From a virus, in the UHGV virus genome UHGV-0104567: a stretch of DNA of 11,955 nucleotides, one strand, 5' to 3'. Position 1 is the first letter of the stretch. The number at the start of each line of letters is the position of its first letter. The position numbers were made by a program, and so were the translations under genes. Positions 1 through 6,785 of the stretch are shown here, in pieces. The notes below the pieces were generated by a model that saw nothing but the letters and a program-made list of their open reading frames with translations, made no database searches and was not told the origin of the DNA.

Positions 1-3
1 CTT

Positions 4-44
4 TGTGTACACTTTTGTGTACCCAAAAACAAAAATGTGTACCC
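4..44 (+). repeat. Three direct repeats of TGTGTAC(CC) immediately upstream of int (candidate integrase arm-type / att-proximal or int regulatory sites)
   Basis: TGTGTAC at 4-10, TGTGTACCC at 16-24 and 36-44, read directly; each preceded by a T- or A-run. Function is inferred from position only. Confidence 0.4.
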
Positions 45-49
45 ATTCA

Positions 50-1243
50 ATGATCACCGACACAAAGCTCAGGAAGGCGCTCGGCAAGAAAAGAGATGAT
101 ATCGAGATTATTTCTGATTCGCACGGGCTCAACGCCAGAATCAGCCAGGCCGGAAAAATATCATTTTTCTATCGGTATCGCTGGGCCGGTAAAGCGGTAA
201 AACTCAATGTTGGTGATTATCCTGCAATGAGTATCACCCAGGCAAGAGAGCGTCGCCAACAATTCAGAAACTGGTTAACTGAGGGACTGGATCCGCGAGA
301 GCAGGTGAAGCTGGATAAGCAGACCCGACAGGAAGCGATGTCCGTTGCCGAAGCGTTCAATTACTGGATTGAAAGGCACTGTATCGCTAACGGGCTAGTT
401 AAAGTCGATTACTATCGCCAGGTGTTTGAGAAACATATCGCCGAACCGATGAAGAATGTCAAAGTCGATAACACAGCGAAAATGCACTGGATCAACGTCT
501 TCGATTCTATAGAAAGCAGGGTGATGGCTCATTACATGCTTTCGCTGTGCAAACGGGCGTTTAGGTTCTGCGTTAACAGAAGTGTGATCGCCTCAAACCC
601 ACTCGAGGGATTACTGCCATCTGATGTCGGGCAAAAGCCTAAAAAGAGAACTCGCAGGATGGACGATGACGATCTGCGCAAAATCTATCAGTGGTTGAAA
701 AGCCATATGTCGATAGAGTCCGTTTTCCTGGTGAAATTTATTATGCTTACCGGATGCCGTACGGCTGAGATTCGACTTAGTGAGAGATCATGGTTTCGAT
801 TGGATGATAATGAGTGGGTCGTGCCTGCGGGCAGTTATAAAACTCGGGTACATATTAGAAGGGGACTCTCAGACGCCGCCGTTAACCTGGTCAGAAATCA
901 CCTCAAGAAAATAAACACCAATCACCTGGTGACTTCACAACGTAAAATTGATGGCGGGATCAAAGATTCGCCCGTTCATTCACCTGTGGCATCCAATTAC
1001 GCCCGTTCTATTTGGAATGGAACAGGTATGGCAGAGTGGTCGCTTCATGATATGAGGCGGACGATAGCCACAAATCTCTCTGAGTTAGGTTGCCCGCCGC
1101 ACGTAATTGAAAAGCTGCTCGGGCATCAGATGGTGGGGGTTATGGCGCATTACAACCTTCATGACTATATCGATGATCAGAAACACTGGCTCCGCGTTTG
1201 GCAGAGCCATCTTGAAGAGATCATCGGAGAGCCCTTCAGTTAA
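50..1243 (+). CDS. int: Tyrosine recombinase / phage integrase, P4-type (IntR-like) with N-terminal arm-binding DUF4102-like domain
   Basis: ATG at 50 gives [10 protein letters not shown]...[10 protein letters not shown], the characteristic P4-family integrase N-terminus. C-terminus has [11 protein letters not shown] ... LLGHQ ... MAHY consistent with the Arg/His/Tyr catalytic motifs. The track ORF begins at GTG 5, but the 5' extension lies in the repeat region and lacks family similarity. Confidence 0.9.
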
Positions 1244-1759: not shown

Positions 1760-2878
1760 TCAGGCCACGTATTCCGGTTTCATATCCGCCAGGGTGATGC
1801 TGAATTGATCGTGCAGTTCATCGCCTAAGTGACGCTTTGAAGATGCAAGCATGCGCTCGGCTTCAGCGAACCGTTCGGCTGCATGCGGCTCGTCGGGCTG
1901 GGGCAGGGATTTAATAGCCTCCTCAACCTTGTTGCGTGCATCCACTAGGTAATAACGCTTTACGGCTTTGTTTTTCAGCTCGGTGAATAGTGCGGATCCC
2001 AGCGTAGCTTTCGCCGTTTCAATGTCGGCACGCAGCGATTTGGCGCTATCCACGTCCTGAGCAGATTCGATGCGTTCGCGGAAATCATCGGCAAGAGAGT
2101 CGACATTTACCGACGATTCCTGTGCGCTTTGCGTGGTTGTGACGGTGTCACCTGAGATATCAGCCAGGCTAACGCGTTGCGGCGTTGGGTTGATCTCTTT
2201 TTCTGTGCGCTGTTCAATCTCATCAGGGGTGTACACACCAAGAACAACTGCAGGGCAATATAGGCGCGCCCAGTATTTGAGTGCCAGATAAGCGATCTGC
2301 TGTTTCGGGTTTGATACCCAAAGTGGAGAATTACGTGTGATTACGCTGGAGAGGAAAACAGGCTCTCCCCAGGTGATATCACTTTCACCGCGAATAACGG
2401 CACCTACCCGTACCGACAGTCCTTGTTCATCAGCACTTTCCCAACCGCGTACCATTTCTTTCTTGTCGTACGTCCCGCCACCTTTCGCAGGCTTTTTAAC
2501 GGTTATCTCGCGGCTGCTGGCACATTTCGACCAGTCGCCCTCGTACTCATAGTGAAAGCGGCCAACGATGGCGTTTGAGCTGGAGATCACCGCATTAACC
2601 AGTTGCGCTTCGTATCCCAGGACACCGTTAACCAGGTGCGTCTTTTGCGCCACGGCGTAAGGGTTCATACCCCACTGCATCGCCTGCATGATGATGGCCA
2701 TGCAGTCTGCCGGATTGCCGCGGAGGTGCTCAGGCACCGTTACGGCTGCCTGTGCCATCAACCCGGCGACAGACTGAAGCTGGGTTAAAGCCTGCACGTT
2801 GAAAATGGCATTGCTGGCTGAGATCGTGTTTGGAGTCTGCTGTTCAGCGGTTACGATATTCGTGTTTTCCATCATCAT
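1760..2878 (-). CDS. recT: RecT / Red-beta family single-strand annealing protein
   Basis: Motifs NPADCMAIIMQAMQWGMNPY and SPLWVSNPKQQIAYLALKYWARLY resemble conserved RecT/Bet segments; lies immediately downstream of the RecE-like gene as in the recET operon. Three consecutive ATGs (2878, 2875, 2872); the third has the best spacing from SD AAGGGG. Confidence 0.8.
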   Translation of the reverse strand: MMMENTNIVTAEQQTPNTISASNAIFNVQALTQLQSVAGLMAQAAVTVPEHLRGNPADCMAIIMQAMQWGMNPYAVAQKTHLVNGVLGYEAQLVNAVISSSNAIVGRFHYEYEGDWSKCASSREITVKKPAKGGGTYDKKEMVRGWESADEQGLSVRVGAVIRGESDITWGEPVFLSSVITRNSPLWVSNPKQQIAYLALKYWARLYCPAVVLGVYTPDEIEQRTEKEINPTPQRVSLADISGDTVTTTQSAQESSVNVDSLADDFRERIESAQDVDSAKSLRADIETAKATLGSALFTELKNKAVKRYYLVDARNKVEEAIKSLPQPDEPHAAERFAEAERMLASSKRHLGDELHDQFSITLADMKPEYVA

Positions 2879-2883
2879 TCCCC

Positions 2884-5793
2884 TTATGCCTGAGTACGCA
2901 GCGCTTCAAGGCGGCGCAGGTCGAAGTCGTTCAGTTCGTCGGTGTAGTCAGCAGTGATTGGCGCTGGCCATTCACCTGTGTCGAATCCGGTTGCGATATT
3001 GCGCATCGCTTTGCGGTACTCGAGCATACCCAGCTCCAGTAGTTCAGCGGATGCCTCGATGATGGCGATCCAGTGGTAGTTCTCGTCTTTGTTGACGAAA
3101 ATCCAGAAGAACTGATCCAGCGCTGCGGTTTCGCAGTACATAGCCGCGCTCAGGTGATAATCACGTTCAATAATTTCCCGGTGTAGCCTGGCGCGCAGGC
3201 TTTCCTGCTTAACATTCCACATGCTGATGGTTTTCAGGTCTGCACCTATACGCACGCCATCCAGGTCGATCTCAAGGTCAGGGCGCACACGAACTTCCAA
3301 GCCCGTCTCCTCGTCAAAACCAAAGTAGCTCACCTCAACGGCTCGGCTAGGGTGGGTCAGCAGCATGCCGGCGGTCGGGTGTGCCAGAAGCGCTTTTTGA
3401 ATATTCAGCGCGGTGCTCAGCTGCTGGCGGGTGACCAGCACTTTTCCTTCCGGGTTATCGCGCCAGGCATCCAGCAGTTCGTCGGCAAATACGGCATCTG
3501 GTTTGACTGCCTTCACGGCCTGGATCATGTCTGCTTTGGTACCGGACACTTTCAGTGGTGCCGGTTTCTGTGCTTCCTGAGCCACAAGGTCAGGGTTGAT
3601 GATTGCCAACTGCTCCAGCAGCGCGTCACGGCTGCCGCTGGTTTTAACCGGCGGCGGCAGGGTGGCGTTGTACTCTTTAATGCATGCCTTCATTGCCGTC
3701 GCCGTCTGCTTCTGGTCACCATCAATACGCTGGAAGTCAGCTGGCAGCGCCATATAGTTCTGTGCCGTTTCTTCCAGGTTAGCGCCAAGCGGAACCTGCG
3801 GCGGCAGGGTGGCGTTGTACTCTTCCAGTAACACCTTGATGTCGTCGGCAGACAGCAGCGCCGGCAGGCTGGCATTGTGCTCATCGATAAAGGCGCGCAG
3901 GGTCGCGGCCGTTGTGAATGCGCCTTCAGGGATCACCGGTTCAACGCTGAATTCTGCGTCCAGTAGTTCAGGCTGCAACGCCAGCGCATGCACCAAGTTG
4001 CCCATGTCCAGCACCGCTGAGCGCTCTTTGACGATGGTTTTCTCTACGTGGCGCGCATTGAAGTACATCAGCGAAACGCGCGCATCTTTCACCTGGGTTG
4101 AGCTGATGCCGTTGGCGGCGTGGTAAACCTCGTTTGGCAGCCCTTCATAGCGGCCTGGCTCGAAATAAGCGGGATAAACAACAGCTGGTTCGTCAGATTG
4201 CGCTTCTGGCTCGGTTTGTGCTGCAACTGGTTCGGTTTGGCTTACAGAATCGCTATTTTTGGCGACAGAATCCGTATTCTGGTCTACATCGTCCTTCTGG
4301 CTGGTATCTGACTCTTCACCAGACTCCAGACTGCTTTCGCCTGGCTGTACTTCATCACCAGCTTGTTTTTCATCACTGACAGTTTCTTGAACCTGCACAT
4401 TGCTGGTGGTCTCCGTAGCCTTTTTCGTGCCATGAGTTGCTGAGTTCTGCAGCAAAGCCGTAACGTCGAATATTCCGTTGCCGACATTTTTAACCAGTTC
4501 TTGTTCGACTTTCTGCGGTTGTGCTGCCGCTTCCTCTGCGCGGCGGCGTGCTCCTTCTTCACGCACGCGTTGCAGGTTCTCTTCGTGAGTGCAGAAGGAT
4601 TTGCGCGGAGACTCCTTACCTTCAGGTTGGGGAATTTCCTGTGCTGCGGGTTCAGCCTCATGCAACGGCAATAACTCGACCGCGGAATTGAACGCGGCTG
4701 TCATGGTCTGGTTAACAAATTCCAGGTGAGCGACAGGAGTTAAATGAATATTTTCCGGTGCGATACGTACCAGGTTAAAAATAGCCGTGCGGTTAACACC
4801 CAGAACGCCTGGCTGATTGCGCAGGATGTTGCTCCATGATTTCCATGGTTCTTCTTTTTTGGTCACGATTTCTTTAGCGCGACGAAGAATGCTGCCCGGG
4901 ATCTCGAAGTGGTTGAAGTCCATAGGCAGAAGGGCACACGCAATCTCTAAATCGAGAGTGTCCAGTGTGTGGTGTGCGTCAGGTCCACGGTCAGTGACGT
5001 AACCGCCGTCGGCATTAGTGCCGGAATCAGTACGCTGCACACTACTGATGCGATTACCGGCGGCCCATTCACGCGCCAGGATGCCACGGTCAATGTAATC
5101 AGTCGCCGCCCACATTCTGGTGAAACGGAGTACCAGCGCGAGTTCGTGACGCTTGTCCTGGCTGAACACTTTGCGAATGGCATCGGTGTAGCGCCACAGG
5201 TCTTTGGTGTCGTAACCCTTCACTTCCGGGCAGTTCTCAGCAGCTAACAGCAAGTTCTGGACGTAACTGTTATCAGTGTCCATCTCCAGCGCGCCGATAG
5301 CTTCGTACTCTTCGTGGGTTACGTGGTGGCGCAGTTCGTCGGCGGTGAACTGGGAAAGCAGTTGCTTACGAAACGGCATCTGCACTACCGGGTAGAGGGT
5401 TGAGTCGTCGTCGTGTTCGTCCAGCGTGATGCCAGCGGTTTCTGGCAGCGTTGACTCAGTAGTTATGTGACTATCAACGGTCTGAGCCGTTTTCTCGTCA
5501 GAGTTTTCAGCTGTGACTTTTGGCAGCCAGGTGCGGTCATCGTTCTGCAGTTCGTAGCGTTCGCACCAGGTGTAATCCACTGCGCCTTCTTCCGGCAGGT
5601 CGTCATATACCGGGAAATCGGTGCGGATTGGTTTGGCATAATCTTTACCGCGGCCAGTTTCTTCAATTCCGGCTTCTTCCAGTGCCACATCGAGTTGGAG
5701 ATTGGCGCGCGCTACACTTTTCGCAGTGAACCAAATCACTGCATCTTTCTTGCCAGACTTCTGACTGGCTTTTATCAGATGGAAAAATTCCAT
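2884..5793 (-). CDS. recE: Exodeoxyribonuclease VIII (RecE-like) with C-terminal PD-(D/E)XK nuclease domain
   Basis: 969 aa, ATG at 5793 with SD AGAGGA. N-terminal segments DFPVYDDLPEEGAVDYTWCERYEL and TDYIDRGILAREWAAGNRIS resemble E. coli RecE as I recall it. C-terminal RPDLEIDLDG...GADLKT fits PD-(D/E)XK motifs. Synteny with recT. Confidence 0.8.
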   Translation of the reverse strand: MEFFHLIKASQKSGKKDAVIWFTAKSVARANLQLDVALEEAGIEETGRGKDYAKPIRTDFPVYDDLPEEGAVDYTWCERYELQNDDRTWLPKVTAENSDEKTAQTVDSHITTESTLPETAGITLDEHDDDSTLYPVVQMPFRKQLLSQFTADELRHHVTHEEYEAIGALEMDTDNSYVQNLLLAAENCPEVKGYDTKDLWRYTDAIRKVFSQDKRHELALVLRFTRMWAATDYIDRGILAREWAAGNRISSVQRTDSGTNADGGYVTDRGPDAHHTLDTLDLEIACALLPMDFNHFEIPGSILRRAKEIVTKKEEPWKSWSNILRNQPGVLGVNRTAIFNLVRIAPENIHLTPVAHLEFVNQTMTAAFNSAVELLPLHEAEPAAQEIPQPEGKESPRKSFCTHEENLQRVREEGARRRAEEAAAQPQKVEQELVKNVGNGIFDVTALLQNSATHGTKKATETTSNVQVQETVSDEKQAGDEVQPGESSLESGEESDTSQKDDVDQNTDSVAKNSDSVSQTEPVAAQTEPEAQSDEPAVVYPAYFEPGRYEGLPNEVYHAANGISSTQVKDARVSLMYFNARHVEKTIVKERSAVLDMGNLVHALALQPELLDAEFSVEPVIPEGAFTTAATLRAFIDEHNASLPALLSADDIKVLLEEYNATLPPQVPLGANLEETAQNYMALPADFQRIDGDQKQTATAMKACIKEYNATLPPPVKTSGSRDALLEQLAIINPDLVAQEAQKPAPLKVSGTKADMIQAVKAVKPDAVFADELLDAWRDNPEGKVLVTRQQLSTALNIQKALLAHPTAGMLLTHPSRAVEVSYFGFDEETGLEVRVRPDLEIDLDGVRIGADLKTISMWNVKQESLRARLHREIIERDYHLSAAMYCETAALDQFFWIFVNKDENYHWIAIIEASAELLELGMLEYRKAMRNIATGFDTGEWPAPITADYTDELNDFDLRRLEALRTQA
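3651..3824 (-). repeat. Perfect 27-bp direct repeat inside recE, copies at 3651-3677 and 3798-3824, 147 bp apart (in frame)
   Basis: GCGGCGGCAGGGTGGCGTTGTACTCTT occurs twice, read directly. On the coding strand it encodes the duplicated peptide EYNATLPP, 49 codons apart. Confidence 0.85.
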
Positions 5794-5932
5794 GTGAGAT
5801 CCTCTTTTTTGGGTGTTAGAATCCCCGGACCATTGATAGCGCCCATTGGGTTAACTTTGGTTTTAATGTTGTTTCCGGTGTAACTTTGGTCGGTACCACC
5901 GGACGTAGATCCCGCCTTGCGCGGGTTTTACG

Positions 5933-6094
5933 TTAGCCTTCGTGAGCCATCTGGTCGTGCGAAGCGCAACGTTTGGAGCAATACTCTTTTTCTTTGCGCG
6001 CCAGCTGTGAGCCGTTGCGATAGAGAAGGGTGCTCTTGATTACTTCCTCCGTTTTAACCGGCTTGCCGCAATATCCGCATTTCTTGTCTAACAT
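5933..6094 (-). CDS. Small zinc-ribbon protein, 53 aa (CxxC...CxxxC); YdaE-like by position
   Basis: Not in the supplied track (below size cutoff). Hand translation: MLDKKCGYCGKPVKTEEVIKSTLLYRNGSQLARKEKEYCSKRCASHDQMAHEG. SD GGAGG 5 nt upstream of ATG, directly after the stop of the upstream gene (coupled). Confidence 0.5.
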   Translation of the reverse strand: MLDKKCGYCGKPVKTEEVIKSTLLYRNGSQLARKEKEYCSKRCASHDQMAHEG

Positions 6095-6105
6095 GACATC
6101 CTCCG

Positions 6106-6312
6106 CTAGTGGCTGAGTCCATGCCCCAGACCGTTCAGATAAACTTCAACCAGCAAATCCTTGGTGTAAGTCATTTCTACGCCGCGATGCAGATACAAAC
6201 GTCCGCGAGCGTTAGCTGATGCCGTCCAGGTTGAGTCTTTGTGTTTGACGAGCATCCCCGGCTGAACTGCGCCGCGGTTTACTGTCTGTGTACCGTAGTG
6301 CTGATGAACCAT
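6106..6312 (-). CDS. Small protein at the kil position of lambdoid/Rac early operons (68 aa; function not established)
   Basis: ATG at 6312 with SD GGAG 6 nt upstream. The track ORF extends to a GTG at 6471 with no SD. Kil-like assignment is positional only. Confidence 0.5.
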   Translation of the reverse strand: MVHQHYGTQTVNRGAVQPGMLVKHKDSTWTASANARGRLYLHRGVEMTYTKDLLVEVYLNGLGHGLSH

Positions 6313-6491
6313 GATGTACTCCAGTTTTTCTGAGTGAACTTCGCTGGTGGTGCCGTGGTGCTGATCTTCACAGTTGAGCGTTTTAACTCTGCAGTTCACC
6401 ACCGCGAAACCCACTCTTATGTGCCTGTCTTTTATCCACTTCAGGCTCGGTGGTATGCTGGTAGTTCTCACACAGCCAGCAAGGAATAACT

Positions 6492-6785
6492 ATGAAATCA
6501 GTAACTAAGCCATGTCCTATTTGTGGTGAAGATGCTTTGTCTTTTAACCAGACAAATCAGTTGGTTAACATCAAAGTAAAACCACCAACTATTCGTGAAG
6601 TTCCATCAGTGGTTTACGTTTGCGATACTCACGGATGGTTTTCACTTTCAGAACAGATAAACAGACTCGTCACATCTAATAACGACCCTGCGGCTAAGCA
6701 AAAACTGGCTGTTATTGTCAAAGAGCGATATGTGCCGGAACAGGATCAGCCGTTAGCCCTGAAACCTATTGAGTCGCTCGCATAA
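6492..6785 (+). CDS. Hypothetical zinc-ribbon protein (97 aa; CPICG ... CDTHG), opposite orientation to flanking early genes
   Basis: ATG with SD AAGGA 7 nt upstream. CxxC and CxxH pairs about 30 residues apart suggest a zinc ribbon, possibly like the MqsA N-terminal (YgiT-type) finger, but no HTH follows. Visibly more AT-rich than flanking genes. Confidence 0.6.
   Translation: MKSVTKPCPICGEDALSFNQTNQLVNIKVKPPTIREVPSVVYVCDTHGWFSLSEQINRLVTSNNDPAAKQKLAVIVKERYVPEQDQPLALKPIESLA

Follow-up and report, generated by a model that had tools for sequence, protein, structure and literature searches.

What does the small gene lying between kil and recE in a lambdoid prophage encode, and with which of its neighbours does it act? 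We addressed this in virus genome UHGV-0104567, analysed as a single strand of 11,955 nucleotides (nt), hereafter the window, in which a 53-amino-acid (aa) open reading frame (ORF) occupies positions 5933-6094 on the minus strand. The original prediction, made from the letters of this DNA, described the ORF as an unlisted zinc-ribbon protein coupled to the gene in kil position and drew a parallel with ydaE of the Rac prophage. Our analysis showed the ORF to be an orthologue of ydaE, located in the leftward early operon of a lambdoid prophage of the Rac-like (mEp237) type. The explanation that best accounts for the data as a whole is that YdaE is an orthologue of the Rac protein, folds as a zinc finger and serves as a binding module of the RecE/RecT system, a combined statement to which we give about an even chance of being correct.

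The ydaE orthologue and its predicted zinc finger

The product of the ORF (MLDKKCGYCGKPVKTEEVIKSTLLYRNGSQLARKEKEYCSKRCASHDQMAHEG) matched NCBIfam NF041288, the YdaE family, with 94 bits (cut-off 35), residues 4-53 aligning with profile positions 1-50 of 50. The Pfam family PF27493 'YdaE' was found in 58/58 database homologues, and the PHROGs entry is phrog_1520, function unknown. Megablast of positions 5800-6500 matched 78 complete E. coli genomes, the top match being 99.3% identical, and 'YdaE family protein' was annotated in 20/20 E. coli records among the matches listed. The RefSeq entry in the 99.3% identical locus is WP_096321125.1, under the same name, and at least 1000 public contigs carried the exact 53-aa sequence. 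An identical YdaE protein is encoded by mEp237, a viable lambdoid phage, in the gene order kil-ydaE-recE-recT, and ydaE was also found in the viable phages HK225, PHB10, SPN3UB and Gifsy-1/2. The gene and its family are therefore already known from RefSeq, NCBIfam, Pfam and PHROGs; 'unlisted' was accurate for the ORF track behind the original prediction and not for public annotation. The Rac parallel was confirmed, as the K-12 order is kilR-ydaE-racC-recE, with ydaE between kilR and recE.

The sequence features first reported for the ORF were all present, namely the cysteine pattern C6-x2-C9-x29-C39-x3-C43, a GGAGG Shine-Dalgarno sequence and a start 11 nt past the upstream stop (TAG, 6108-6106). 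A purine-rich box and a gap of 10-11 nt before ydaE were seen throughout the Kil-type loci. The ratio of nonsynonymous to synonymous substitution (dN/dS, Nei-Gojobori) between the window ydaE and 22 homologous loci was 0.10-0.37, with a median of 0.22 over 240 ydaE pairs and the highest variability at third codon positions. With dN/dS near 0.2 and four conserved cysteines the ORF is almost certainly a genuine YdaE-family gene, as had been claimed for it. A chance reading frame within the kil-recE spacer could be argued from its length of only 53 aa and from its being known at this locus from sequence. The profile match and the dN/dS values speak against this, as do cysteines and a tail that are invariant across 131 distinct sequences and retention of the gene in viable phages, and we consider a spurious ORF to have a negligible chance.

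Literature searches for a functional study of YdaE found none and returned only screen hits: susceptibility to the type VI secretion system (PMC7012810), transposon sequencing under chemical stress (PMC5064937), a screen of kanamycin minimum inhibitory concentration (MIC) (PMC12924614) and a call of 'essential' by transposon-directed insertion-site sequencing only (PMC5821084). PADLOC anti-phage defence models gave no match to YdaE, Kil, RecE or the 97-aa ORF upstream of kil, and an Rfam search of the window also gave no match.

Conservation was concentrated at the cysteines and at the C terminus. In the family alignment C6, Y8, C9, Y38, C39 and S40 were invariant, C43 was present in at least 90% and DQMAHE was nearly invariant, so that the four cysteines singled out by the original prediction are indeed conserved. 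Across 131 distinct YdaE domain sequences, drawn from 242 ORFs, C6, Y8 and C9 were each found at 97% or more. The protein ended exactly one residue past HE in 129/130 distinct family sequences, and DQMAHE was conserved from enterobacterial prophages through to phage proteins of about 190 aa from other phyla. These longer relatives came from a scan of 1.84 billion representatives that returned 128 proteins at E <= 1e-3, many of them about 190 aa long with the YdaE domain, ending DQMAHEG, as their last 50 residues. Their N-terminal domain is conserved and gave a confident AlphaFold2 model (predicted local distance difference test, pLDDT, 94), and it had no match in Pfam, PHROGs, PDB or BFVD. The long forms (L301 6001-6588, L056-L062, L092, L303-L309 among our numbered loci) occurred on AT-rich as well as GC-rich phage contigs from several environments.

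AlphaFold2 modelled YdaE itself with a pLDDT of 81 (26 sequences in the alignment) as a knuckle, a long hairpin formed by residues 19-27 and 30-38, and a helix (41-46) beginning at CSKRC. Fold comparison matched the model to the C-terminal fingers of phenol and methane monooxygenase and to MYND and HIT fingers. The predicted fold is thus a treble-clef or TRASH-like finger and not a classical zinc ribbon, which has two knuckles, each in a beta-hairpin, an arrangement absent from the YdaE model. The TRASH/L24e treble clef follows C-x2-C-x19-22-C-x3-C; the spacing between the pairs in the window YdaE is x29. Searching PDB sequences with the YdaE family profile gave weak L24e matches and nothing stronger, indicating that the structure of YdaE is still unsolved. 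From homology, the four cysteines of the window protein would very probably hold one structural zinc in a Cys4 site. The metal-binding half of the zinc-ribbon claim agrees with the label carried by the K-12 homologue, while the ribbon half is at odds with the predicted fold.

Association with recE and recT and rival explanations

Downstream of ydaE the neighbourhood was close to constant. A RecE-family gene followed ydaE in 50/51 informative loci of a 52-locus species-level set, in which one locus is truncated and one, from an Acidobacteria metagenome-assembled genome, is without RecE. Among viral loci anchored on ydaE a RecE-family gene followed in 68/80, and 9/12 exceptions were long-form relatives from other phyla. 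Anchoring on RecE instead recovered ydaE in 71/77 informative viral loci; in the six loci without it the N-terminus of RecE was truncated or replaced, resembling prophage decay. Where a K-12-type RecE with its nuclease was accompanied by RecT, ydaE was present in 16/16 loci (7/7 dereplicated). In Stx-type prophages RecE is cut to its N-terminal region, lacks PDDEXK and is followed by gam-bet-exo, an arrangement described as the 'RecE-2' class (PMC12315714), and here ydaE was present in 13 loci and absent from 31 (8 versus 11 after dereplication, or 8/19). Allele-exchange breakpoints fell at the recE start, and in enterobacterial DNA ydaE was never seen elsewhere.

Several individual loci illustrated this variation. 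L216 (5731-7803) and L221-L257 carry a 690-aa homologue of the RecE N-terminal region only, and show the presence/absence polymorphism of ydaE. In L107 (4989-7228) 4 nt separate the end of a 59-aa YdaE-like ORF from the gene for a 298-aa nuclease-only RecE-like protein (PDDEXK), with recT next in line, so that the order YdaE-exonuclease-RecT occurs even without the RecE N-terminal region. In L092 the long-form relative precedes recT and a YqaJ-like exonuclease. The viral contigs L140 and L141 differ by a mosaic patch (about 3630-4020) with breakpoints at the start of recE and within the 3' part of kil; their recE genes and the 5' parts of their kil genes are near-identical, and their YdaE proteins are only 55% identical. 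A mirror-tree or co-adaptation argument for either RecE or Kil was rejected, as YdaE alleles swap between near-identical flanks.

An accessory of RecE/RecT fits these data best because the linkage is asymmetric, with a recE-family neighbour always present in enterobacterial DNA despite the breakpoints between the two genes, and because ydaE was lost chiefly where RecE had lost its nuclease. YdaE would be a small zinc-stabilised binding module with one structural zinc in a knuckle-hairpin-helix finger, using the invariant tail ...DQMAHE-x-COOH as its working surface. It would work together with the RecE/RecT module, its target being RecE or else the DNA ends or partners with which RecE deals; on this view YdaE would neither serve Kil as a cofactor nor inhibit RecBCD nor store zinc. 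The case for a functional tie to this module is correlative and we hold the tie tentatively. That YdaE is a third component of RecE/RecT-type modules, a zinc-finger accessory binding via its DQMAHE-x tail, is conceivable and somewhat more doubtful still.

The gene upstream of ydaE was far more variable, and this bears on whether YdaE could be a partner of Kil, as a cofactor, chaperone or antidote of this FtsZ/septation inhibitor. The 11-nt gap in the window and the overlapping stop and start in K-12 suggest such a role, and Kil lay upstream in 17/52 species-level loci and in 38/71 RecE-anchored viral loci with ydaE. In the remaining 35/52 loci, however, ydaE was equally tightly coupled to another upstream gene or to none: a conserved 38-aa ORF (phrog_22279) in 20/52, DUF1482 (phrog_1092) in 13/52 and others in 2/52. 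Moreover, 31 Stx-type loci (11 dereplicated types) keep kil with ydaE deleted, and one Kil allele pairs with YdaE alleles merely 55% identical. KilR by itself reportedly blocks division, which also counts against a partnership, and we consider this role unlikely. Less likely again is that YdaE supplies the missing Gam of RecET phages as a small inhibitor of host RecBCD. Its slot between kil and the recombinase genes equals that of lambda gam, Rac/Gifsy-type Rec modules are without a recognised anti-RecBCD gene (PMC11611040; PMC12315714, class B), and ydaE is constant with RecE and RecT and often lost beside gam-bet-exo. Yet mEp237, whose kil, ydaE and recE are identical to those of the window, is rich in co-oriented Chi sites: its genome (L302) has 8 copies of GCTGGTGG on one strand versus 1.45 expected, a number reached in 0/100 shuffles. 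In the window there are 2 such sites, on the plus strand in both cases (4402-4409 and 6343-6350), versus 0.48 expected. A further point against an inhibitor is that Gam must be supplied for RecET recombineering in recBCD+ cells, although such constructs are without ydaE. Co-oriented Chi richness marks phages that make use of RecBCD instead of inhibiting it (PMC12315714), and the counts for mEp237 and the window fit the Chi-rich lambdoid class without an anti-RecBCD gene. In addition, 8 dereplicated Stx-type loci carry ydaE together with gam, as does phiSTEC1589-Stx1c, and we found no family match and no sequence or fold similarity of YdaE to Gam, GamL, Abc2 or MuGam. The Chi counts and the co-occurrence with gam led us to downgrade the Gam analogue to very improbable.

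Two further alternatives start from the zinc site. YdaE could dock on DNA gyrase or another core host enzyme early in infection as a YacG-like inhibitor, YacG being likewise a small Cys4 treble clef with C-x2-C...C-S-K-R-C. Gyrase inhibition by YacG requires a C-terminal tail that engages GyrB, and YdaE has only 10 residues after its last cysteine. YacG membership was rejected by both family models (NCBIfam 15.1 bits versus a cut-off of 79, Pfam 13.8 versus 25.5), and we rate this alternative as improbable. The original prediction had described small zinc-ribbon proteins of this operon as typically host-interaction factors; none of our computations pointed to a host target of YdaE. YdaE could also be a zinc store or chaperone, a cut-down metallothionein of the SmtA type. 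In PMC6892955, K-12 YdaE is placed among 'SmtA-like zinc fingers' on the authority of Blindauer 2002 and is termed a 'zinc-binding chaperone'; Pfam Metallothio_Pro (PF02069) gave weak scores of 15 bits for the window YdaE and 20.6 bits for K-12 YdaE. Both scores lie under the cut-off of 33 bits, and four cysteines suffice for one structural site and are too few for a Zn4 cluster; membership of the bacterial metallothioneins SmtA/BmtA was rejected on the score of the window protein and its having only four cysteines. The gene is encoded solely in phage early operons beside recombination genes, and in the three ZnCl2 MIC groups of pig E. coli isolates its frequency was only 16-53% (PMC6892955). 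A zinc store is the most improbable of these roles.

Several observations weigh against a RecE/RecT accessory as well. RecE and RecT suffice in recombineering (PMC11611040), so YdaE is an accessory at most. Physical linkage and the clonal sampling of prophages both confound the ydaE-recE synteny, and since divergent YdaE alleles are exchanged between near-identical kil and recE genes, YdaE shows no allele-specific co-adaptation with RecE. Most YdaE-domain relatives of about 190 aa were not beside a recognisable recombinase, which suggests for this domain a binding partner more universal than RecE. Finally, Kil and YdaE were fused in frame into one 124-aa ORF in four of 17 Kil loci (Phytobacter, Atlantibacter), a classical hint of joint function that favours Kil as the partner. 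The finding itself is ordinary, since the gene is catalogued and its K-12 homologue has been labelled zinc-binding since 2002. Of more lasting value is the picture of a family hardly ever parted from recE in enterobacterial prophages, with interchangeable upstream genes and an invariant C-terminal tail. If YdaE is an accessory of RecE/RecT, it would give a first way into the N-terminal two-thirds of RecE, which are still unexplained, and could possibly improve RecET recombineering.

Upstream genes and other features of the window

Positions of ydaE, its conserved elements and the flanking features in the window
Feature	Position	Strand	Remarks
recT recombinase	1760..2878	minus	372 aa; RefSeq 'RecT family recombinase' in near-identical locus; tblastn synteny
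recE-family exonuclease VIII	2884..5793	minus	969 aa; constant neighbour downstream of ydaE
ydaE-recE spacer	5794..5932	minus	139 nt; no minus-strand terminator
Hairpin CCCGC CTTGC GCGGG + TTTT	5911-5925	plus	just 3' of the ydaE stop
ydaE-family coding sequence	5933..6094	minus	53 aa; ATG 6094-6092, stop 5935-5933
C-terminal tail D47-Q-M-A-H-E-G53	5936..5956	minus	near-invariant motif
Putative second ligand pair C39-S-K-R-C43	5966..5980	minus	begins predicted helix 41-46
Putative first zinc knuckle C6-G-Y-C9	6068..6079	minus	C6, Y8 and C9 invariant in alignment and long-form relatives
kil-ydaE spacer	6095..6105	minus	11 nt, CGGAGGATGTC; Shine-Dalgarno GGAGG 6100-6104, 5 nt ahead of ATG
kil (FtsZ/septation inhibitor homologue)	6106..6312	minus	68 aa; directly upstream of ydaE
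97-aa ORF	6492-6785	plus	divergent; upstream of kil

The gene in kil position proved to be a Kil homologue, most likely of 68 aa and not of the 121 aa first listed. The mechanical ORF runs from a GTG at 6471 (6106-6471) and is over-extended; the true start is most likely ATG 6312, preceded by GGAG at 6322-6319, in line with annotation in RefSeq and in phage mEp237. The 68-aa protein matched phrog_294 'Kil protein' with 118 bits and shares 34% identity with K-12 KilR; against NF008465 it scored 58.5 bits, below the cut-off of 92. Its exact sequence carries the public name 'cell division inhibitor protein', and mEp237 annotates it as Kil. The 'extension' ahead of this start (RTTSIPPSLKWIKDRH...) is a leader sequence, conserved and also present where another small gene replaces kil (L010, L049).

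No terminator lies between kil and ydaE, and ydaE is placed for translation right after kil. RNA folding at the junction gave nothing beyond shuffled controls (z = 0.13), so any coupling would rest on proximity and on the Shine-Dalgarno sequence of ydaE itself. The tight coupling that the original prediction had emphasised is visible in the window, with its 11-nt gap, and does not extend to a conserved partnership with kil across the family.

The 38-aa ORF that most often takes the place of kil (MIDFARKPGRQQAVKLN..EVILRRLCYLLAQKGNPDV; MIDFARKP...LAQKGNPDV; function unknown) overlaps the ydaE start by 8 nt. It was seen in L009-L020, L032, L036, L038, L045, L049 and L052, and in Gifsy-2 (L218) at 4386-4502. 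At the fusion loci (L025 3776-4150, L034 3785-4159, L035 and L042) the junction between Kil and YdaE has an internal Met after a G-rich box. A profile alignment (hhalign) of Kil with the N-terminal domain of the long-form YdaE relatives showed no relation.

The divergent 97-aa ORF takes the position of sieB in Rac and has an N-terminal CPICG knuckle. It matched phrog_31519 (unknown function) end to end, gave weak Lar restriction-alleviation scores, and was kept beside kil or ydaE in several further loci. On the other side of ydaE, the hairpin just past its stop is terminator-like on the strand opposite to the operon. RecE has an Exonuc_VIII N-terminal domain (residues 4-181) and a PDDEXK domain, DUF3799 (792-944), and recT is the last member of the recombination module.

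Comparison with known systems

Lambda Gam and P22 Abc2 resemble YdaE as positional analogues only, all being products of small early-left-operon genes between kil and the recombinases. Cyanobacterial SmtA is likened to K-12 YdaE through the YCSxxCA motif of its zinc-finger part (PMC6892955). K-12 YdaE also had matches to Rtr1/RPAP2 and metallothionein, all of them sub-threshold. YacG, a chromosomally encoded gyrase inhibitor (PF03884), gave a weak structural alignment with YdaE at 31% identity. The hairpin is 29 residues in YdaE versus 15 in YacG, and YdaE is phage-encoded and without the long C-terminal tail.

The closest comparison is with YdaE of the K-12 Rac prophage (b4526), which is 40% identical to the window protein and has the RefSeq product name 'zinc-binding protein'. 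Zinc binding of K-12 YdaE is credited to Blindauer 2002 in PMC6892955. Loss of RacR derepresses K-12 ydaE about 40-fold and kilR more than 70-fold, and also racC (PMC6765115; bioRxiv 10.64898/2026.09.06.749655). In the 99.3% identical E. coli locus (L001 1-246; window 1-1243, plus strand) the prophage adjoins kch, and the attP recorded for mEp237 is similar to that of phi80, for the kch-yciI intergenic region; together these indicate an integration site that differs from that of K-12 Rac. The first knuckle is C-x4-C (CAYHLC) in the K-12 protein versus C-x2-C in the window, the K-12 ydaE start overlaps the kilR stop whereas the window has a gap, and racC lies between ydaE and recE in K-12 and is missing from the window. 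Both proteins nevertheless belong to NF041288, PF27493 and PHROG 1520, share the four-cysteine scheme and the DQMAHE tail, and are encoded in the same operon slot, after kil and ahead of recE.
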